Of a DNA stretch of 60,517 bases, positions 1 through 8,687 are shown one piece after another. A program made the translations under genes and the position numbers. This DNA comes from Candidatus Peregrinibacteria bacterium. Its GTDB lineage: Bacteria; Patescibacteriota; Gracilibacteria; CAIRYL01; GCA-016699755. Numbering within the stretch: position 1 is the stretch's first letter; the number at the start of each line of letters is the position of its first letter. The stretch covers positions 1 to 60,517 of the forward strand of contig JANTGK010000003.1 of NCBI GenBank assembly GCA_024762935.1, written 5' to 3'. The notes beneath the pieces were generated by a model, which saw nothing but the letters and a program-made list of their open reading frames with translations, had not been told where the DNA came from and did no database searches.

Positions 1-96
1 TAATTTGTAATTTGTAATTTGTAATTTGTAATTTGTAATTTGTAATTTGTAATTTGTAATTTGTAATTTGTAATTTGTAATTTGTAATTTGTAATT
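1..96. repeat. Perfect heptamer tandem repeat (TAATTTG)n, about 13.7 copies, truncated by the window edge
   Basis: Read directly; it starts 3 nt after the stop of the minus-strand gene at 100 and reads (AATTACA)n on that strand. Confidence 0.98.
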
Positions 97-99
97 CCC

Positions 100-1227
100 C
101 TACACCTTCTTCCCCTTCTTCAAAGCAAGATACAGTCCCCGATGACATCGTCCAAGCGTACCGAGTGAAATTAAAAAGATAAGGAATGCAGCAAGATTCC
201 CGATATATGGAACCAGTGGCAACAAATAAATAATAAGAGACCCCAGTGTAAAGAGTCCAAAGATATGCCAATATGAAGATTTTTTTGAAACAGGGAACAG
301 AAAACTTCCCACAACAAGACCATCAACAATCGAGGCCACCAAAAGAGCAGCAAAATACACCAAAATTGCTAATCCCGCGAGCGGGATTCCCAATACTGTT
401 AGCGCCAGAAAAAGAGCCCCAATAGGAAACGTAATAAACATAAGAAATCCGATTCCCATACTCACAAAGGGGGATGATTTTGAGAGCTCAGCATATCGGA
501 TGAAATAATTTCTTAAAAAATGAATCAAAAGCCCTCCAACGGCAAGAATGGTCAAAAAGAAAACGAGTGAAAAAGGAGACCAGAGCCATCGGACTTTTCT
601 TTCAAAAGAACTCTGCTCGTATTTATAGACATCTCTGCTTCCATTAAAAGTGTATTCTCCTCCAACATTAACCTCTGACACCTTGTTGGGGGCAGTAAGA
701 TCCAAATCTCCAGCAATATATCCTGCCTGACCAAAAATCAATGTCTTCGCCGAAATCTTTGCATTTCCAGCAATACGGTCATTTATCTCTACCACTTCTC
801 CTGCAAGTCGCACATCTCCTTCTACAGGTCCATTGAGTTGAATAGACTCAGCCCCTATCCAGGCATCTCCTCCGATAGTACTCCCACTTCGCACAATTAC
901 ATTTTGAGCAGCGGCAATAAGACTATCCCCAATATTTCCAGCAACAACCACATCATAGCCCCCGATACGGGCATCATCCCCAACATCTCCAAATACCTTC
1001 ACTACAAACCCAGCCGCCGTCAAATCCTGACCTACTGATTCACGAACTTCCATAGATCGACCAGCAAGCATAAGATCACCAGGTACATATTTACCAATCT
1101 CTTCAATTTCTCCAGAAATATACACATCATTTCCACTCGAAGTTGTCTGCACATCAGAGAGGGCAAAAACCGAAGGAAGAAAAAGGAAAAAAGCGGGAGC
1201 AATAAATGAAAAAACTGCAGTTTTCAT
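100..1227 (-). CDS. Membrane protein with bactofilin/polymer-forming-like beta-helix repeats and C-terminal TM helices
   Basis: Signal peptide MKTAVFSF..VFA, repeated V-x-G-D-L/A-x-x-A/G-G units, about 5 C-terminal TM helices; start moved from 1440 to ATG 1227. Confidence 0.7.
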   Translation of the reverse strand: MKTAVFSFIAPAFFLFLPSVFALSDVQTTSSGNDVYISGEIEEIGKYVPGDLMLAGRSMEVRESVGQDLTAAGFVVKVFGDVGDDARIGGYDVVVAGNIGDSLIAAAQNVIVRSGSTIGGDAWIGAESIQLNGPVEGDVRLAGEVVEINDRIAGNAKISAKTLIFGQAGYIAGDLDLTAPNKVSEVNVGGEYTFNGSRDVYKYEQSSFERKVRWLWSPFSLVFFLTILAVGGLLIHFLRNYFIRYAELSKSSPFVSMGIGFLMFITFPIGALFLALTVLGIPLAGLAILVYFAALLVASIVDGLVVGSFLFPVSKKSSYWHIFGLFTLGSLIIYLLPLVPYIGNLAAFLIFLISLGTLGRCHRGLYLALKKGKKV

Positions 1228-1519
1228 ACATTTCAAAAAGAGGCAGTTATGATTGTAATGACAACTGCCTCTCGGGTCAATTTTCATATACCCCGAAAGA
1301 AACAAGAAACACTGAATTGATGATAAACTACCATACGAGTCCTCTTCCCAGTTGTGCTCCTCCCCACCTTTCCTTACAAATGGTGAAAGTTCTTGGAGTG
1401 GAATATCAATTTTCTCTTCTTTTACCTCTTTTTGCTCCACTTACGCTTGATTACTTTTTGTGGAGATGTGTTTTTTGAGAAAACATTAAAATTCCTATGT
1501 GATAAAAAAAATATCAGTA

Positions 1520-1547
1520 TTGACAGCAATAAAAATTTCGATATGAT
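1520..1547 (+). promoter_or_regulatory. Sigma70-type promoter of the arg leader/argGH
   Basis: TTGACA (1520-1525), 16-nt spacer, TATGAT (1542-1547). Confidence 0.7.
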
Positions 1548-1555
1548 TGGAGGTA

Positions 1556-1612
1556 ATGAAGAGACAAGAAAATATCTTCGGCTTCCGCCGCCGCCCCTTA
1601 GCTCTTTCTTAG
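1556..1612 (+). CDS. Putative arginine leader peptide MKRQENIFGFRRRPLALS
   Basis: ATG 1556, tandem CGC CGC CGC at 1586-1594, TAG 1610-1612; lies between the promoter and argG. Confidence 0.7.
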   Translation: MKRQENIFGFRRRPLALS

Positions 1613-1648
1613 GGTAGTATTTTTTGCTTTCTTCTTTTTTGCAAAACA

Positions 1649-1684
1649 GCCTTAAGAATATCTTAAGGTCTTTTTTACTTTTTT
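1649..1684 (+). terminator. Attenuator intrinsic terminator upstream of argG
   Basis: Stem GCCTTAAGA/TCTTAAGGT (1649-1657/1661-1669) followed by a U-rich tract. Confidence 0.7.
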
Positions 1685-1693
1685 CATACACCA

Positions 1694-2947
1694 ATGTCCG
1701 ATACAACTTATAAAAAAATTGCTAGTCATGAAGCGAGAAAGGGAGAGTTCTCAAAATGCCTCCTCCTCTATTCTGGAGGACTTGATACTTCTGTTATGCT
1801 CAAGTGGATTCAAGAACAGTACGAAGCTGATGTCATTGCTCTCACCATCAATATTGGGCAGACAGCAGATGATCTTGTTGCCATCAAAGAAAAAGCCATT
1901 CAACTCGGAGCAAAAGATGCCATTGTCTATGATGCAAAAGAAGAATTTGCTGATCTTTGCGCTATGGCTATTAAAGCAAATGCAGATTACCAAGGAGGGT
2001 ATGCACTCGGATGCCCACTAGGGAGGGTAATGATTTCACAAGTGGCAGTTGAAATAGCAAAAAAAACTGGCTGTGAAGTAATTGCTCACGGTGCAACGGG
2101 GAAAGGGAATGACCAAGTCCGATTTGAAAGTTATGTAACAACACTAGACCCAAAATTAAAAATCATCGCCCCCGTCCGAGAATGGGGCATGGGTCGAGAT
2201 GAGGAGCTCGCATATGCTGCAAAAAATAACATACCTGTTAAACAGACAAAAGATTCACCCTATAGTTATGACGAGAACATGTGGGCAAACACAGGAGAAG
2301 GAGGAGAAATCGAAGACCCAAAACTCATCCCACCGCTCAAGAATATTCTCCAATGGTGCAAGACAAAAGAAGAAGCAAAAGACGAAGCTGGAATCCTCGA
2401 AATCGAATTCAAAAAAGGAATTCCCACTTCTCTCAATGGTTCATCTAAAAAACTCAGTGACCTTATTATGGAATGTAATGCTATCGGTGCAGAACACGGT
2501 GTGGGAGTCTTTCATCTGATTGAAGACCGACTCATCGGGCTTAAGGTAAGAGGAATCTACGAAAATCCTGCCGCTTCTATTCTCATTGCTGCCCACCAAA
2601 ACCTAGAACAGCTCGTCTCCACACGAGAGGAAAACGAGATGAAACGATTCATCGATACAAAGTGGGCATATCTCACCTACGATGCGAGATGGTTTGAACC
2701 AACCATGCACCATATTCATAGCTATATCGATAGCCAAAATGAAAAAGTCACCGGAACAGTAAAAGTAAAACTCTATAAAGGAAATATAGATGTTGTTGCT
2801 GTCGAATCACCATACTCACTTTTTGATGCCGATCTCGCCACATTTGATAAAAATGCAGCATTTAATCAAAATGCCTCCGCCGGTTTCATCGAACTCTGGA
2901 ATCTTCCCCAAAAAACTGCACGACAATCATTTAACTACGAATCATGA
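1694..2947 (+). CDS. argG: Argininosuccinate synthase
   Basis: LYSGGLDTS, HGATGKGNDQVRFE and YSYDENMW motifs. Confidence 0.97.
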   Translation: MSDTTYKKIASHEARKGEFSKCLLLYSGGLDTSVMLKWIQEQYEADVIALTINIGQTADDLVAIKEKAIQLGAKDAIVYDAKEEFADLCAMAIKANADYQGGYALGCPLGRVMISQVAVEIAKKTGCEVIAHGATGKGNDQVRFESYVTTLDPKLKIIAPVREWGMGRDEELAYAAKNNIPVKQTKDSPYSYDENMWANTGEGGEIEDPKLIPPLKNILQWCKTKEEAKDEAGILEIEFKKGIPTSLNGSSKKLSDLIMECNAIGAEHGVGVFHLIEDRLIGLKVRGIYENPAASILIAAHQNLEQLVSTREENEMKRFIDTKWAYLTYDARWFEPTMHHIHSYIDSQNEKVTGTVKVKLYKGNIDVVAVESPYSLFDADLATFDKNAAFNQNASAGFIELWNLPQKTARQSFNYES

Positions 2948-4146
2948 GACTCTGGGATACAGCGAGCACAAGTGACTCTCACCATGAATTTGTTGATCAC
3001 TTCACCGTCGGAGATGACTACCAGTGGGACAACCAACTCTTAGAGGCAGATGTTCGGGCAAGTAAAGCACACGCGCTCATGCTCCTCAATGTCGGGGTTA
3101 TTACAGATAAAGAAAACAAGATGCTTCAAAAATCACTTGATGAAATTCTTCTGCTTCACAAAAAAGGAGAATTTCTTATCACTCGTAATCATGAAGATTG
3201 CCACACAGCCATAGAAGAATACCTCACCATGAAATGTGGTGATACCGGCAAAAAAATTCATACCGGGCGAAGTCGAAATGATCAAGTTCTCGTAGCCATG
3301 AGAATCATCATGAAAGAAAAAATGGATGACTTTCATGACCAAATTCAGGAGCTTTCAAACAGCTTTTCTCAACAAAGCAAAAAATGGAGCTCCCAAATAA
3401 TGCCAGGATACACACATATGCAAAAAGCAATGCCAACAACAGTAGGAATCTGGTTACAGGCTTTTGCTGATGGACTCTCAGACCAAATACCTCCTCTTAA
3501 ATCCGTAAGAACTCTCATCGACCAAAACCCACTCGGATCAGCAAGCGGCTTTGGAATCAGAAACTTCAAAAATAATCGCCCGCTCACAACACGAGAATTG
3601 CATTTCCAAAAAACCCAAGAAAATCCAATATACTGTGGTCTTTCACGTGGCCTGTTTGAGTATCAATGTATTGAAGCACTCACGCCAAGTATACTCATTC
3701 TCAGTCGATTTATTGCCGATATTCTTTTTTTTACTGCTGACGGAAAAAAGTATTTTACCCTCCCTGATTTTTTGACCACAGGAAGTTCCATCATGCCCCA
3801 GAAAAAGAATGTTGACCCCGCAGAGATATTTCGAGGAAAAGTATCACAATTCCTTGCCATCAAACATGAAATAGAAATAATCTACAACGGACTTCCCTCT
3901 GGATACAATCGGGATATTTCTCTTATAAAACAATCGTACTTCCGGGCGAGCACTCTTGCAGAAGAACTCATGCAAATGGCACAGATTTTTGCAGAAAATG
4001 TCACTCCAAATGCTGAAGCACTCCAAGAAAGTATGACCGAAGACCTCTTTGTCACCGAAAAGATTTATAATCTCGTAAAAATAGGAGTCCCATTTCGAGA
4101 AGCGTATCAACAGGTAAAAGAAGAGTTTATGACCGGAGACTTGTAA
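2944..4146 (+). CDS. argH: Argininosuccinate lyase
   Basis: HTGRSRNDQV, MPGYTHMQKA and GSSIMPQKKN signatures; ATGA overlap with argG. Confidence 0.95.
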   Translation: MRLWDTASTSDSHHEFVDHFTVGDDYQWDNQLLEADVRASKAHALMLLNVGVITDKENKMLQKSLDEILLLHKKGEFLITRNHEDCHTAIEEYLTMKCGDTGKKIHTGRSRNDQVLVAMRIIMKEKMDDFHDQIQELSNSFSQQSKKWSSQIMPGYTHMQKAMPTTVGIWLQAFADGLSDQIPPLKSVRTLIDQNPLGSASGFGIRNFKNNRPLTTRELHFQKTQENPIYCGLSRGLFEYQCIEALTPSILILSRFIADILFFTADGKKYFTLPDFLTTGSSIMPQKKNVDPAEIFRGKVSQFLAIKHEIEIIYNGLPSGYNRDISLIKQSYFRASTLAEELMQMAQIFAENVTPNAEALQESMTEDLFVTEKIYNLVKIGVPFREAYQQVKEEFMTGDL

Positions 4147-4711
4147 GCATATTATTATCCTTTAGCCACTTCTGCACCATGACTCCGAGTTCAAAAGCAA
4201 AAGGAGAATTTATAATAGGGCTTCCATTGCTCATGTCGATTTTATCTTGAGGAACAAGAATATACCCGATTGGTGGGTATACATCTGGCAAAATATTTGA
4301 AATATTCATTACGGGACCTTCATCACCACATCCAATGAGCCGTAACTCTTCCAACAGAGAAATCCTTCCTGTCTGTGTAGTGCTACGCATAGTTGGCTGA
4401 ATCTGTAATTTTCTAATACGATCATAAAGAGCCATCTGCTCATCAACACTTTCACTATTATCATATCTTTCACGAAGATTTCCAAGTGTTGATTTAAGAG
4501 CCGCTGTATACACATCATGCAGGATGACAACAATCGCTGGATGAATCACCTCTTTCTGTTTCTCAGGCTCAATATCGGTAGAAAATGGATGTGATGAAGC
4601 GATGACATTGACTTGTCTCCCAAAACCATTGTTGTCACAATACGCAAACATATCTTTTCTCCACTGTACCGGAATAGTAAATCGTCTCTTGTCATCTATT
4701 TTTATATTCAT
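4127..4711 (-). CDS. Divergent MraZ/AbrB-like protein
   Basis: N-terminal IDDKRRFTIP resembles the MraZ DxKGRxxIP motif; weak second motif QTGRISL. Confidence 0.45.
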   Translation of the reverse strand: MNIKIDDKRRFTIPVQWRKDMFAYCDNNGFGRQVNVIASSHPFSTDIEPEKQKEVIHPAIVVILHDVYTAALKSTLGNLRERYDNSESVDEQMALYDRIRKLQIQPTMRSTTQTGRISLLEELRLIGCGDEGPVMNISNILPDVYPPIGYILVPQDKIDMSNGSPIINSPFAFELGVMVQKWLKDNNMLTSLRS

Positions 4712-4763
4712 TCTTAGATAAAAAGTCCTGCACTATACCCTGGTCTTCTATTTTTTAGCAACT

Positions 4764-4803
4764 AAAAATCCCGTACTTGTGGAGAAGTACGGGATTTTTT
4801 TTT
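4764..4803. terminator. Intrinsic terminator after the DsbA gene (bidirectional shape)
   Basis: AAAAATCCCGTACTT-gtggag-AAGTACGGGATTTTT. Confidence 0.85.
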
Positions 4804-4819
4804 CAGTGTATACAATGAC

Positions 4820-5719
4820 CTACTCTTGAGCAGCGAGTTCTTGCTCAATATACTTCTCAAATTCTTCGTATGGATATGCTCCCTTAATCTGCCATCCGTT
4901 AATGAAAAATCCAGGAGTTCCTGAAATTCCGTACTCAGAACCTTGTTTCATATCTCCTTCGATTTCAGCAGTATCATTTGCATCAAGACATGCTGTAAAT
5001 GCTGCTTCATCAAGTCCAAGTTCTTTTGCATACTTAATGAATGTCTCCCTATTAAGACTCTTCTGGTTAGCAAAAAGCTTATCATGCATTTCAAAGTACT
5101 TTTCATTACCACCTTGCTCTAGAACACAGTTTGCTGCAACAGCTGCAGGCATAGCGTCTGGATGAAATCCAAGAGGAAAATCTCGGTATACATATTTTAC
5201 TTTTCCTGTATCAACATATTTTTCTTTAATCTTTGGGTAAACGGAGTTCACATGGCGAGAGCAAAATGGGCACTCAAAGTCTGAAAATTCAACAATAGTC
5301 ACTGGTGCATCTGCATCACCAATAAAGGGGTCATCATCCACAGAAATGCCCTCCATTTTCTTCGGCTTGTTGGCCTCTTCTTGTGCTTTTTTTGCCGCTG
5401 CTTCTTGTTCAGCAATAAAAGCTTGAATTCCTGCAGCTACTTTTGCATTAAAATCTTCATCGGTCATACCTACTGAATCCGCAACAATCTTCTCTGAAAT
5501 CATCTGCTGTACATCCTCTTTAGTGGCAAAACCAGCATCTGTAAGCTGACTTTTGACTATTTCTTTAATTTTTTCTTCAGAAACACTCTTTTTTAACTCC
5601 TTCTGGACAATCTTTGAAACTCCAGCTTCAGAGAGACCCGAAGAATCACTGACTCCTGGTACACACCCAGAAAGAAACATGCCAGAAACGGCAAGAACGG
5701 AAAGAAAATACTTATTCAT
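4820..5719 (-). CDS. DsbA-family thioredoxin-fold lipoprotein
   Basis: Lipobox LSGC; EFSDFECPFC; GISGTPGFFING. Confidence 0.9.
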   Translation of the reverse strand: MNKYFLSVLAVSGMFLSGCVPGVSDSSGLSEAGVSKIVQKELKKSVSEEKIKEIVKSQLTDAGFATKEDVQQMISEKIVADSVGMTDEDFNAKVAAGIQAFIAEQEAAAKKAQEEANKPKKMEGISVDDDPFIGDADAPVTIVEFSDFECPFCSRHVNSVYPKIKEKYVDTGKVKYVYRDFPLGFHPDAMPAAVAANCVLEQGGNEKYFEMHDKLFANQKSLNRETFIKYAKELGLDEAAFTACLDANDTAEIEGDMKQGSEYGISGTPGFFINGWQIKGAYPYEEFEKYIEQELAAQE

Positions 5720-5927
5720 AGTCGATAAAAAAAATACCCATGCATTTTATAGTAAACTCCCCCCAAAAGAAAGGTTCGCGCATTTCTCAAATTTAGTAAT
5801 ATTTTATAATCCTATTTGATAGAGAGAATCATTTACGAGATATGTACCGTTTCATGTACTCCTCCCAAATGCAATGCGGTTACTTGTCGGGAGCAATCAA
5901 CTCACGAGATGAGAAGATATTACAGAA

Positions 5928-8573
5928 TTACTCCTTTCCCTTTTCACAGTGTGAAAATTGAGGATTATCACTGCATACAATCTCTCCACCAAAGTTTCGT
6001 TCACACTGGCTTTCATTAAAGTACACCGCTTTACACTCACTTCGACTGATGCACTCATTTTCAGTTCGAATTTCCGAGCAGGTCTTTTCATCAAGGGTAA
6101 TACGGTTTTTAAGGCTCAGATCATCCCACGAAAGAGCACTGATAATGTTCGGAGAAATCGAAAAGAAATTCTTCCCGATATAAATGATTCTCTGAATATT
6201 TTTATCAGCATCTCCATAAAAATACTCACCAGACTTTAAAAACGAATCATCATCGGCATCATAGTGGCTCACTTCTCCCCGAAGAGTAAATCCATCTTTG
6301 ACGCTTACATCATATACTCTCGCACCAGAAAAGACTGTTTCAATATCTGCTTCATCTCCTGTTTTGTTATTTTTGTTCTCAGTAATAGTAACCGGGAACC
6401 CTAGAATGCCTTTTTTCTCGTCAAAAAGAAGAGCCTTATGATTTGTAAGGACCTCACTCGTCGTTCCTCGAGACCCGATGACTTCCTTTTGAATCTCTCT
6501 TGGATTTGCTAGGTCAGAAACATCAAAAAGGGAGAGTTTCATTCCAAGAACAGCAGTGTAGTATACAGCTGAATCAGAGTGGACCTTGTCGGCATCGATA
6601 GATTCATCAACCTCCTTTCCAAAACCAATCAAATACTTTTCACCAAAAGGTTGTAAATAATCTGACCATCCGGGAATTTTTAATTTCCCAAGAATTTTTG
6701 GTGCTGTCGGAGTAAGGTCTATGACAAACAGTGGATCAACTGTTTTAAAAGTAATGAGAAATGCTCGTTTCCCCATAAAACGAGCTGACTTCAGATTCTC
6801 TCCAGGTGCAATACCATCAATCACTCCTGTCTGCTTCAGGTTAGAATCGAGAATCGTTACCATACTTTCGGAAAGATGAGATCCCCACGCCTGACCAACT
6901 TGTGTCGCTACTCGAAAGTAATCATTATATTCACTCATTGAAAATTGATTTAAAAGTCGCCCCCGAACTCGCCCCTTTCCATCAAATGCGATATCACCAT
7001 TAGAAAGTGAAAATTTATAAATATCTGTTCCTTCTGTGTTTTCCCAACCAGAATCATTTCCCCTCTCCCAAAAAATTTCATCCCAAGAAGAATTTGTCAC
7101 ATAGAGATTCTTTTGAGAGGCATACACCTGATTTCCTCCTCCAAGAACAACCTCTCGTTTTGCTTTCTCTGATGCATCTCTCGTATTTACTGAGGCAACA
7201 ATAAGGTAGTTCTGATACTGGAAATTTGGTATATACCGCACCTCATCACATCCGGCAACAGTTACTTCATCAGGATGAGTGGAATCTGAGAATGCAGGAA
7301 GAAGATCATCAAGAGGTATTGGCTCTGGACCCCCTCTAAAAGCATTCCATCCTTTATTCACCACGACATATACCATCTCATCAATTCTACGGGAAGAAAC
7401 ATATTCCCCTTCTACAGCAACGGTACGAAGTTTTTTTGGATTCTCTCTATCAGAAACATCATATACAAGAGTAACCACCTCAGTTGCACCAGAGTAATAC
7501 GGCATATCCGGCATTATTGTCGTTCGAATAACATCTTCGTAAGGAGAAACCGTCATGCCGTTTTTCTCTCCAATAAGAGTAAGTCGATCTCCATCAAGAA
7601 ACATCTCACGAGGAAGTATTTTCTCTTCATCAAGTGAAATCCGTGCCACCTCCTTCATTGTATCTGTCGGTATAGCTGAGATAATACGAACAGTTTTTCC
7701 CTTGAGAAGAAAAATATGTGACCCATCATTTTTGATGATATCTGCTTCATCAACTCCTTCCTCTTGAATATTTGTTTCTGAAAAATCATCTGCCGCTGGA
7801 GCCATTGTTTTTTCTTCGACCATTGCGCTTACACCTGCCGAATCACCATCAGTGACAGCAAAATCTGCAAATTCCATTTCGCTATCAACCATTGCATTTC
7901 TTGTTTGCAAAGCCCCTGTATTGAGCCGTTTTTCTGCTTTTTGTAACTGTGCTTCAAGCTCATCACATGAGTTGAGTGTTGGAAGGTCTCCAAGAGAAGT
8001 ATTCTCTACTTCATTTCCGGTAACAATACCCCAAACCATTTCTGACATCTCACCACGTGTAAGCAGATCAGCTGTATCAGTAATGCTTCCCGGCATGACT
8101 CGCTCCCTTTGTAATGCCCCTATATACCCCTCAAACCACTCCCCTTGTTTTGATGCTGGGATAGAGAGCCCTTGAACTTCACTCACAATTTTTGCTGCAT
8201 CACGAACGTTAATTTGTTCATGAGGCCGAAACGTTCCGTCGGCATATCCCATTATAATCCCATTATTAGAGGCATCGCACACGACGTTATAAAACCAATC
8301 ATCAGGATGCACATCTGAAAATGTTTTTCCCTCCCAGATACAAGAATCATCACCATAATCTTCTGATGTCTTCAATGCAATCTTCAAAAACTCTGCTCTC
8401 GTAATATCTTTATCAGGTCGAAATGTCCCATCTGAAAATCCTTCTACAATACCATTATTCAAAAGATATTCAACTGCCTCTCTCGAGCTCGTACCATGAG
8501 TATCAGAAAAATCTGCACTCACAATCGGCGACAACACGAGGGCAAAAAATGAAACAAAAAGTATTTTTTTCAT
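5928..8573 (-). CDS. Secreted SLH-domain plus beta-propeller-domain protein with Cys-rich tail
   Basis: SLH motifs GFSDGTFRPDKDITRAEF; TNIQEEGVDEADIIK, FKTVDPLFVIDL and LKIPGWSDYL of the Beta_propel family; start ATG 8573. Confidence 0.85.
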   Translation of the reverse strand: MKKILFVSFFALVLSPIVSADFSDTHGTSSREAVEYLLNNGIVEGFSDGTFRPDKDITRAEFLKIALKTSEDYGDDSCIWEGKTFSDVHPDDWFYNVVCDASNNGIIMGYADGTFRPHEQINVRDAAKIVSEVQGLSIPASKQGEWFEGYIGALQRERVMPGSITDTADLLTRGEMSEMVWGIVTGNEVENTSLGDLPTLNSCDELEAQLQKAEKRLNTGALQTRNAMVDSEMEFADFAVTDGDSAGVSAMVEEKTMAPAADDFSETNIQEEGVDEADIIKNDGSHIFLLKGKTVRIISAIPTDTMKEVARISLDEEKILPREMFLDGDRLTLIGEKNGMTVSPYEDVIRTTIMPDMPYYSGATEVVTLVYDVSDRENPKKLRTVAVEGEYVSSRRIDEMVYVVVNKGWNAFRGGPEPIPLDDLLPAFSDSTHPDEVTVAGCDEVRYIPNFQYQNYLIVASVNTRDASEKAKREVVLGGGNQVYASQKNLYVTNSSWDEIFWERGNDSGWENTEGTDIYKFSLSNGDIAFDGKGRVRGRLLNQFSMSEYNDYFRVATQVGQAWGSHLSESMVTILDSNLKQTGVIDGIAPGENLKSARFMGKRAFLITFKTVDPLFVIDLTPTAPKILGKLKIPGWSDYLQPFGEKYLIGFGKEVDESIDADKVHSDSAVYYTAVLGMKLSLFDVSDLANPREIQKEVIGSRGTTSEVLTNHKALLFDEKKGILGFPVTITENKNNKTGDEADIETVFSGARVYDVSVKDGFTLRGEVSHYDADDDSFLKSGEYFYGDADKNIQRIIYIGKNFFSISPNIISALSWDDLSLKNRITLDEKTCSEIRTENECISRSECKAVYFNESQCERNFGGEIVCSDNPQFSHCEKGKE

Positions 8574-8687
8574 ACGGAGAAAAACAGCAGAAAAAGAATA
8601 GACTTTCGCAGAAAAATGGCAAGTCAATAGAAAGCAATCACCCTTTGAGCCCTAAAATCATATCACATCCTGCTGATGCGAATAATA

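Follow-up and report, generated by a model that had tools for sequence, protein, structure and literature searches.

A probable arginine-sensing leader-peptide attenuator upstream of argG-argH in a Candidatus Peregrinibacteria genome

In the genome of a Candidatus Peregrinibacteria bacterium (assembly GCA_024762935.1, contig JANTGK010000003.1), the arginine genes argG and argH are preceded by a short leader that carries three tandem arginine codons and can form either of two competing hairpins. We propose, with a probability of roughly 0.8, that this leader is a ribosome-mediated transcription attenuator of the trp/his type, reading the supply of charged tRNA-Arg and controlling argG-argH. The window, the whole stretch of DNA analysed, is 60,517 nt long, and coordinates are positions on its forward strand. 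An attenuator of this kind had been put forward in a first-pass annotation of the window. The features described there are confirmed, and the interpretation is supported by the folding of the leader and by the recurrence of similar leaders in relatives.

Structure of the argG leader

Four hallmarks of leader-peptide attenuators are found here in silico: an upstream open reading frame (uORF) with regulatory codons, an intrinsic terminator, a mutually exclusive antiterminator, and recurrence in relatives. The promoter, the 18-residue uORF and the CGC triplet of the first-pass annotation are present where it had placed them (Table 1). The promoter hexamers TTGACA and TATGAT give an 11/12 match, the best of the promoter-like sites in positions 1-6000. 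Because the -10 box ends so near the ATG, the spacing suggests that the transcript starts at the ATG or 1-3 nt before it and that the uORF is leaderless or nearly so.

Segment 3 is the strand that the two structures share. It pairs with segment 2 at 9 of 9 positions, two of them G-U, as first described, and folding adds a tenth pair, U1606-A1658. The 2:3 duplex has an energy of -12.8 kcal/mol, and the antiterminator element as a whole (1605-1660, with its inner hairpin) reaches -14.4 kcal/mol. Alternatively, segment 3 pairs with segment 4. This hairpin has nine pairs, three of them G-C, and a 3-nt loop, and is followed by CTTTTTTACTTTTTT; the terminator scan lists the site, bearing out the claim of a U-tailed terminator, which alone is worth -9.1 to -9.8 kcal/mol. 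The imperfect pairing of segment 1 with segment 2 is also present, though weak. The full leader folds at -32.4 kcal/mol (z = -3.1), and 1 of 200 shuffles is equally stable.

Folds of the nascent transcript follow the expected choice between these structures. The RNA was cut before segment 4, and the ribosome was placed at the stop codon or with either the first or the last Arg codon in its A site. With the ribosome stalled at either Arg codon, 9 of 9 bases of the terminator 5' arm pair with 1607-1615 in the constrained folds. With the ribosome at the stop codon, 1607-1615 is masked and the remaining structure is worth -3.3 kcal/mol, against -14.4 kcal/mol in the stalled state. For the complete leader free of ribosomes, the energy is -27.3 kcal/mol whether segment 4 or segment 2 is blocked, so the switch is balanced.

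From the observed parts, their coordinates and energies and their recurrence, we infer the following order of events. Transcription would start a few bases past the -10 box, at or just before the ATG, and the mini-ORF would be translated without a Shine-Dalgarno motif. When arginyl-tRNA(GCG) is plentiful, the ribosome would pass the three CGC codons, reach the stop at 1610-1612 and cover segment 2 (1606-1615), and the 3:4 hairpin with its U tract would terminate transcription about 10-25 nt before argG. When arginyl-tRNA is scarce, the ribosome would stall with one of the CGC codons in its A site and its front edge at about 1599-1605. Segment 2 would then be free to pair with segment 3 once this had been made (10 bp, -14.4 kcal/mol with the inner hairpin), and the resulting antiterminator would block the terminator and let RNA polymerase read into argG-argH. 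Since the 1:2 hairpin is weak, the ribosome itself would be the main anti-antiterminator, unlike in classical systems. A search for RNA sequencing runs that cover positions 1440-3200 listed none.

Arg-run leaders in relatives of the class

The conservation of an Arg-run uORF in relatives had been set beforehand as a test of the attenuator, and it was found. The argG loci came from two sources. The first was 61 relatives, 19 of them with a match, and the second was an even sample of 301 genomes of the class, 80 of them over the Pfam cut-off, which contributed 53 further loci with up to 3 kb of upstream sequence. A usable argG start was present in 70 of 71 loci (numbered with the prefix L here); L132 lacks an in-frame start and was set aside, the partial loci L019 and L020 were excluded, and L141, L142 and L152 were read with TGA as sense, owing to in-frame TGA. 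Upstream stretches of at least 60 nt outside open reading frames of at least 110 aa (51,396 nt in total) were scanned for ATG mini-ORFs of 8-45 codons.

Mini-ORFs containing RRR occur at 25 of the 70 loci; the reverse complement gives 2 of 70, and 20 dinucleotide shuffles average 2.1 (maximum 4). For RR the numbers are 49 loci, 26 on the reverse complement and a shuffle mean of 16.8. A strict cluster, defined as RR plus at least three R within six residues, is present at 39 loci, against 10 on the reverse complement and a mean of 8.1 (maximum 15) in 50 shuffles. After filtering against intervening opposite-strand genes, 38 of the 70 loci, from 13 of 18 families, retain the strict cluster. The remaining 19 residues show no enrichment over controls in the upstream mini-ORFs of these loci.

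The leader peptides themselves, for example MNVWILVSQLRRRRQ, MKLIIKTLARRRTLKILWG, MNFVFRRRGLSHKRRA, MKIKNFVFVASRRRPR, MQNTFLISIRRRRAI and MNRFRLVSRRRRRH, share only the Arg run across families and are 14-37 residues long. Their Arg codons are CGC (70), CGT (63), CGA (24), CGG (19), AGA (18) and AGG (5), so that CGC and CGT make up 133 of 199. The run is followed by Pro (RRRP) in the argG leader peptide of the window, in L107 and L133, and in the leaders of Balneolaceae. Within the sub-families ..VSQLRRR.. and ..LRRRRPxGV, peptide conservation coincides with RNA pairing. In a MAFFT alignment of the ..VSQLRRR.. sub-family, the 3' arms of sub-groups fall into different registers. Further leaders, among them MKDISATVSLRRRRL and MNIKSTTSLNRRRRLS, turn up on metagenome contigs.

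The alternative pairings recur as well. In a hand set of 11 leaders with their terminators, most of the terminator 5' arm is captured in the stalled folds of 9, with partial capture in L021 and none in L010, and the capturing partner always lies at or just past the stop codon of the mini-ORF. As to the energy gap between stall and stop, 0-1 of 300 shuffles attain it for 9 of the 11 leaders, 4 of 300 for L012 and 10 of 300 for the argG leader of the window. An automatic pipeline, in which a few terminators were mis-picked (L123, L133), found a hairpin and U-run after 39 of 45 Arg-cluster mini-ORFs; in 30 of these 39, at least five arm bases are captured by a segment that is masked with the ribosome at the stop codon. 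The helix sequences are unrelated between families, so it is the architecture that is conserved and not the sequence.

Promoter spacing in the relatives resembles that of the window. TTGACA precedes most of their leaders, and among the 30 of 39 examined leaders with a promoter match of at least 9/12, 15 have their -10 box ending 7-10 nt short of the ATG, most often at 8. A Shine-Dalgarno-like 4-mer precedes just 2 of the 39. Many of these leaders are, we infer, leaderless or nearly leaderless.

The position of the leader is also informative. In L003 (MKTLFCNTSARRRSQI), L013, L075 and L116 (argF by TIGR00658, 292 bits), it stands in front of argF-argG. L013 carries a tandem pair of leaders, some 1256 and 1103 nt ahead of argG and each with a terminator, and the last 300 nt before argG in L012 contain two terminators. 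L118 and L119 have one leader ahead of an amino-acid-kinase gene (Pfam AA_kinase) upstream of argG, and a second ahead of a conserved 140-aa ORF of no known family followed by argG. Judged by these gene orders, the leader follows the operon and not argG as such.

Some loci carry further small elements near the leader. In L005 and L085, a leader about 200 nt before argF has its frame broken by an in-frame TAA (MKLL, the stop, then KIISCKISTRRCSQI) with no other start codon, and may be a decayed leader, use a non-canonical start or reflect an assembly error. A second tiny ORF, conserved in one genus (MITF[RK]FYYQKR, MIPLEFYYKKRE, MQPFLFYYQK), lies 60-110 nt before argG in L003, L005, L011 and L006, either in the argF-argG gap or immediately ahead of argG. 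L004, L124 and L131, which belong to one family, have one to three tRNA genes within some 100-800 nt of their Arg leader.

A counterpart in Balneolaceae and Ekhidna

The argG of the window shares 70-76% identity with its Balneolaceae, Rhodohalobacter and Ekhidna counterparts. This closeness is unusual for distant phyla and suggests horizontal gene transfer, and perhaps the leader idea was transferred along with argG. An Arg-cluster mini-ORF stands just before argF-argG in 51 of 60 loci of the Balneolaceae/Ekhidna type (argF was confirmed in L028). The Balneolaceae leader nearly always reads ..LRRRRP[LMW]GV or ..RRRRRSGV and lies about 1140-1470 nt upstream of argG (L022-L099). A strong terminator follows 45 of the 47 leaders of this set that were folded.

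RNAalifold on 31 of these leaders returns the terminator and a 1:2 hairpin that joins the Arg codons, CGCCGCC, to GGGCGUG; compensatory changes occur at 8 of 13 pairs, those of the terminator included. Pairing of the proposed antiterminator is seen in 80% of cells and drops to 27-58% when it is slid, and one of its pairs switches from G-C (22 sequences) to A-U (8 sequences). PF01316, the ArgR domain, was not found in any of five leader-bearing Balneolia/Cytophagia genomes. No Rfam family matched eight Balneolia loci, and the best sub-threshold match, in the Rhodohalobacter counterpart, was Trp_leader at 21.3 bits (cut-off 41). Two records, L028 and L058, are isolates by record title and not metagenome-assembled genomes (Rhodohalobacter sulfatireducens WB101 and Rhodohalobacter sp. 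8-1). The mechanism can therefore be tested at the bench, though the Candidate Phyla Radiation (CPR) host cannot be grown.

Codons, tRNAs and regulators of the host

The draft genome comprises 1.38 Mb in 82 contigs, with 95.84% completeness and 38.4% G+C. CGC is its rarest Arg codon, at 2.7 per 1000. Of the 35 tRNAs found in the draft assembly, those for arginine have the anticodons GCG, UCG, UCU and CCU, and one tRNA-Arg gene lies at 31709-31784 of contig C11. CGC and CGU are decoded by tRNA-Arg(GCG). An ACG (inosine) tRNA was not found in this assembly, so both codons would be read by one dedicated tRNA-Arg(GCG).

Long ORFs show no enrichment of Shine-Dalgarno-like 4-mers in front of them: 60 of 774 have one, against 91 of 774 control stretches inside genes, with crude ORF starts. 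The organism thus seems to initiate translation without Shine-Dalgarno motifs. A GGAGG does lie 2 nt before the uORF ATG and was considered as a ribosome-binding site. It probably is not one, given that the spacing is only 2 nt, that it probably lies upstream of the transcript start, and that the genome is without Shine-Dalgarno enrichment.

Known regulators of arginine genes were sought in the same genome. The check for argR that accompanied the attenuator idea gave no match to the ArgR domains PF01316 and PF02863, which matched in 8-9 of 14 control genomes (ARG-box operators were not searched). Across the class, PF01316 exceeds its cut-off in just 1 of the 301 genomes, inside a 361-aa frame. 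Rfam 15 on positions 1300-1900 gave five matches up to E = 10, all far below gathering, with no leader family and no T-box among them, and on 18 leader-bearing CPR loci it returned tRNAs only.

Points that weigh against the attenuator

Several observations weigh against the attenuator. First, the single argG-argH locus is suggestive but statistically modest and not decisive. When the spacer between the Arg run and the terminator is shuffled, 25 of 300 shuffles capture the terminator 5' arm fully, and 10 of 300 reach the energy gap between stall and stop. A genome-wide scan in six frames, with lax criteria, for RRR-containing ATG mini-ORFs of 8-45 codons and a hairpin within about 110 nt finds a terminator-like hairpin after 13 of 132. 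One of the hits, intergenic before the same-strand gene holA with the codons CGG AGG AGA, was considered as another Arg-run leader of the genome and put down to chance. Because the statistics of the single locus are modest, the case rests on recurrence in relatives.

Second, the RNA structures have weak sides. The terminator is a short hairpin rich in A+U (three G-C pairs, about -9 to -10 kcal/mol), and the 1:2 hairpin is worth only -5.2 kcal/mol. When the complete leader carries a stalled ribosome, its lowest-energy structure keeps the terminator, so antitermination would rest on the order of synthesis, as in classical systems.

Third, the comparative evidence is uneven. Kin are not independent, and the locus counts overstate the number of separate events. 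The strict Arg cluster is missing from 32 of the 70 class loci, including 10 of 11 in family f18, whose argG is about 36% identical to that of the window. The 11 leaders and terminators of the hand set were chosen by eye. A capture criterion of five bases is passed by only 15 of 45 leaders in the Balneolaceae set. Among the 61 relatives, genome contigs and metagenome contigs, no relative is close enough for aligning this leader, so there is no base-by-base covariation for it; the best argG identity is 76-82%, and the 82% match is a partial argG with argF directly upstream.

Finally, the host's own ornithine carbamoyltransferase gene (contig C18:17216-18148, L234; PF02729, PF00185) has no Arg leader upstream. 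It may serve catabolism or be under different regulation. Just before its start lies an A/T-rich inverted repeat, GAATATTCT..AGAATATT.

Alternative explanations

The alternative that survives best, though we consider it unlikely, is that the nascent peptide or free arginine, and not charged tRNA, stalls the ribosome at the RRR and so picks the hairpin. The fungal arginine attenuator peptide, encoded by the arg-2/CPA1 uORF, provides a eukaryotic and translational precedent, in which a conserved peptide stalls the ribosome on free arginine. The basic run, often with a following Pro, is the sole conserved feature of the bacterial peptides, and if high arginine halted the ribosome at the stop codon or close to it, this geometry would likewise favour termination. 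The likeness to the fungal peptide lies in an arginine-dependent uORF; peptides of the argG type are conserved in their Arg run only, and with that and their varying length they do not fit a specific sensor peptide. In addition, the bias of leader codons to CGC and CGT, together with the rarity of CGC in this genome, amounts to selection on codons, hence on tRNA, and not on residues only. The PxGV that follows the run in Balneolaceae is explained by RNA pairing of segments 1 and 2.

Somewhat less probable still is a switch that acts mainly after transcription, on argG translation or mRNA stability, or one that works via Rho, in place of intrinsic termination at 1669-1684. In that case the hairpins would gate the argG start or a Rho loading site. 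The terminator is weak and ends about 10-25 nt before the argG ATG, and in a genome that makes no use of Shine-Dalgarno motifs, initiation may need unstructured, A/U-rich RNA. The argG start nevertheless lies outside the hairpin, a U tract is present here, and the U-run recurs with the terminator in the relatives. Their terminators often lie 80-1500 nt before the next gene, a distance that fits termination and not the masking of a start codon.

Coincidence, in which a constitutive or leaky hairpin happens to follow a meaningless mini-ORF with three Arg codons, is strongly disfavoured. The shuffles at the single locus and the genome-wide hairpin count leave room for it, and promoter-like sites in positions 1-6000 are no more common than in shuffles (15 against 15.2 +/- 4.2). 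The Arg-run enrichment, however, is specific to arginine operons across 13 of 18 families and is absent for the opposite strand, for shuffles and for other residues. Among the 13 genome-wide hits, an arginine gene follows only the argG leader (the context was checked for 8 of the other 12).

A sensor of proline or EF-P, as in mgtL-type leaders, can be dismissed as very improbable: the +1 frame is open over 1393-1617 and reads the same bases as Pro-Pro-Pro-Pro (CCG CCG CCG CCC, stop 1615-1617), but its sole ATG (1543) lies within the -10 hexamer with no later ATG, GTG or TTG before the run, the runs of relatives (CGT CGT CGA, CGC AGA CGC and others) are not proline in another frame, and the downstream genes make arginine.

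Relation to known attenuators and significance

ArgR repression is the textbook control of arginine biosynthesis; ArgR binds DNA, and T-boxes bind uncharged tRNA directly. ArgR/AhrC and Arg T-boxes serve the same purpose as the proposed attenuator, in that arginine genes are off when arginine is plentiful; the ArgR domains were not matched in this genome, nor a T-box in positions 1300-1900. The leader resembles trpL, hisL, pheL, leuL, thrL and ilvL in its tandem cognate codons, its U-tailed terminator and the placement of the antiterminator 5' strand at the uORF stop. Its spacing of codons, stop and hairpins is like that of trpL. It has no sequence relation to Trp_leader (RF00513), Leu_leader (RF00512) or Phe_leader (RF01859). 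It also differs from the classical attenuators in the amino acid that would be sensed, in the missing Shine-Dalgarno motif, in a uORF that is probably leaderless, and in its CPR host. On these comparisons the argG leader belongs to the mechanistic class of leader-peptide attenuators and lies outside every described sequence family.

Leaders that sense other amino acids come closest in architecture. In a study of Streptomyces lividans, leaderless leader peptides cover Leu, Trp, Ala, Ile, Met and Thr, with no Arg among them (PMC8079986). These leaders of Actinobacteria (leuL, trpL, ilvL, thrL, alaL) likewise have a mini-ORF at the 5' end of the transcript, a codon run and a cognate operon, several with a hairpin and U stretch (PMC8079986). 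They differ in amino acid and phylum, and the transcript start of argG is placed by promoter spacing only. Leaderless polycysteine short ORFs of mycobacteria are described in a preprint (bioRxiv 10.1101/834739).

Arginine codons are read for other ends elsewhere. In the speF leader ORF of Salmonella, consecutive Arg codons reportedly also signal arginine through ribosome speed and alternative mRNA conformations, but the gene controlled encodes ornithine decarboxylase, a polyamine gene, and is not part of arginine biosynthesis (PMC6386406). In rbfL of Staphylococcus aureus, pausing at rare Arg codons likewise depends on the supply of arginine and tRNA-Arg (PMC13009471). There the control is translational, with the paused ribosome occluding the ribosome-binding site of rbf, and the target is a biofilm regulator. 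The rbfL codons are AGA/AGG, read via tRNA-Arg(UCU), and low arginine represses, whereas it is predicted to induce argG.

The first-pass annotation had called an arginine attenuator in a CPR-like genome unusual. No leader-peptide attenuator of arginine biosynthesis was found in the full-text literature (including PMC8632094); subscription comparative-genomics work (Vitreschak, Lopatovskaya) may hold one. In the sources consulted, leader-peptide attenuation is described for trp, his, leu, thr, phe, ilv and a few other systems, and not for arginine. A term search of a survey of premature terminators gave no mention of arginine (PMC2965389), and the leaders listed for a Flavobacterium transcriptome include those of ilvE and hisG and no Arg leader (PMC9723704). 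In a comparative study of Actinobacteria, T-boxes are named as the RNA-level control of arginine genes (PMC1262725). The element is not confined to CPR, since Balneolaceae carry a counterpart. The argG leader is most likely new by its amino acid, its host lineage and its Shine-Dalgarno-free, probably leaderless mini-ORF.

Taken together, the data allow a broader proposal that we regard as an even bet. Arg attenuators may be an unrecognised, widespread class that replaces ArgR in two or more lineages far apart, namely the CPR class of Gracilibacteria/Peregrinibacteria and, within the Bacteroidota group, the Balneolia/Cytophagia. They would often be leaderless and free of Shine-Dalgarno motifs and would use mainly CGY codons (tRNA-Arg(GCG) here). 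The argG leader would be a working member and the first sign of coupled transcription and translation regulating biosynthesis in CPR bacteria. If the elements work, arginine joins the amino acids with leader-peptide attenuation, and the lineages that carry them appear to manage without ArgR. It would also give CPR bacteria, about whose regulation almost nothing is known, a first gene-regulatory mechanism that is concrete and testable, and would imply that transcription and translation are coupled there. Arg leaders could serve as a simple annotation marker for arginine-responsive operons in metagenomes.

Neighbouring genes and minor observations

Table 1. Elements of the argG leader, the genes behind it, and a conserved ORF of related loci
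Feature	Position	Strand	Basis or remark
-35 hexamer TTGACA	1520-1525	+	promoter-like site scan
-10 hexamer TATGAT	1542-1547	+	16-nt spacer; ends 8 nt before uORF ATG
Leader mini-ORF, 18 codons plus stop, MKRQENIFGFRRRPLALS	1556-1612 (ATG 1556, TAG 1610-1612)	+	sequence
Tandem Arg codons CGC CGC CGC, proposed sensor	1586-1594	+	sequence
Segment 1 CCCTTAG, weak partner of segment 2	1595-1601	+	imperfect 1:2 hairpin, -5.2 kcal/mol
Segment 2 TCTTAGGGT, antiterminator 5' strand including uORF stop	1607-1615 (1606-1615 with U1606)	+	constrained folds
Small inner hairpin within antiterminator loop	1623-1645 (1623-1627 with 1641-1645)	+	folding
Segment 3 GCCTTAAGA, shared strand, pairs with segment 2 or segment 4	1649-1657 (1649-1658 with A1658)	+	folding
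Segment 4 TCTTAAGGT, terminator 3' strand	1661-1669	+	terminator scan
U-rich tract CTTTTTTACTTTTTT after hairpin	1670-1684	+	sequence
argG, argininosuccinate synthase, 417 aa	1694-2947	+	PF00764, PF20979; NF001770 490.9 bits (cut-off 334), TIGR00032 454.5 bits (above cut-off)
argH-like argininosuccinate lyase, 400 aa, short C-terminus	2944-4146	+	Lyase_1; TIGR00838 273.3 bits, just under cut-off 279.5
Conserved 140-155-aa ORF	L116:2278-2712	-
Conserved 140-155-aa ORF	L118:2478-2903	+
Conserved 140-155-aa ORF	L119:1645-2067	-
Conserved 140-155-aa ORF	L126:1312-1776	-

The start of the argH-like gene overlaps the argG stop (ATGA), and the C-terminus of its product is about 55 residues short of the TIGR00838 model. 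Upstream of the leader, the gene at 100-1440 lies on the minus strand, is divergent, and encodes 446 aa with no family match. The hairpin at 1649-1669 was considered as its terminator; it cannot be, since the gene is divergent and its 3' end is far off.

The conserved ORF of 140-155 aa that stands between the Arg leader and argF/argG in one family of relatives has no match in Pfam or NCBIfam and presumably encodes an unrecognised protein of the arginine pathway. Farther along the window, positions 5928-8627 on the minus strand encode a candidate S-layer protein of 899 aa, which has SLH domains and a beta-propeller.

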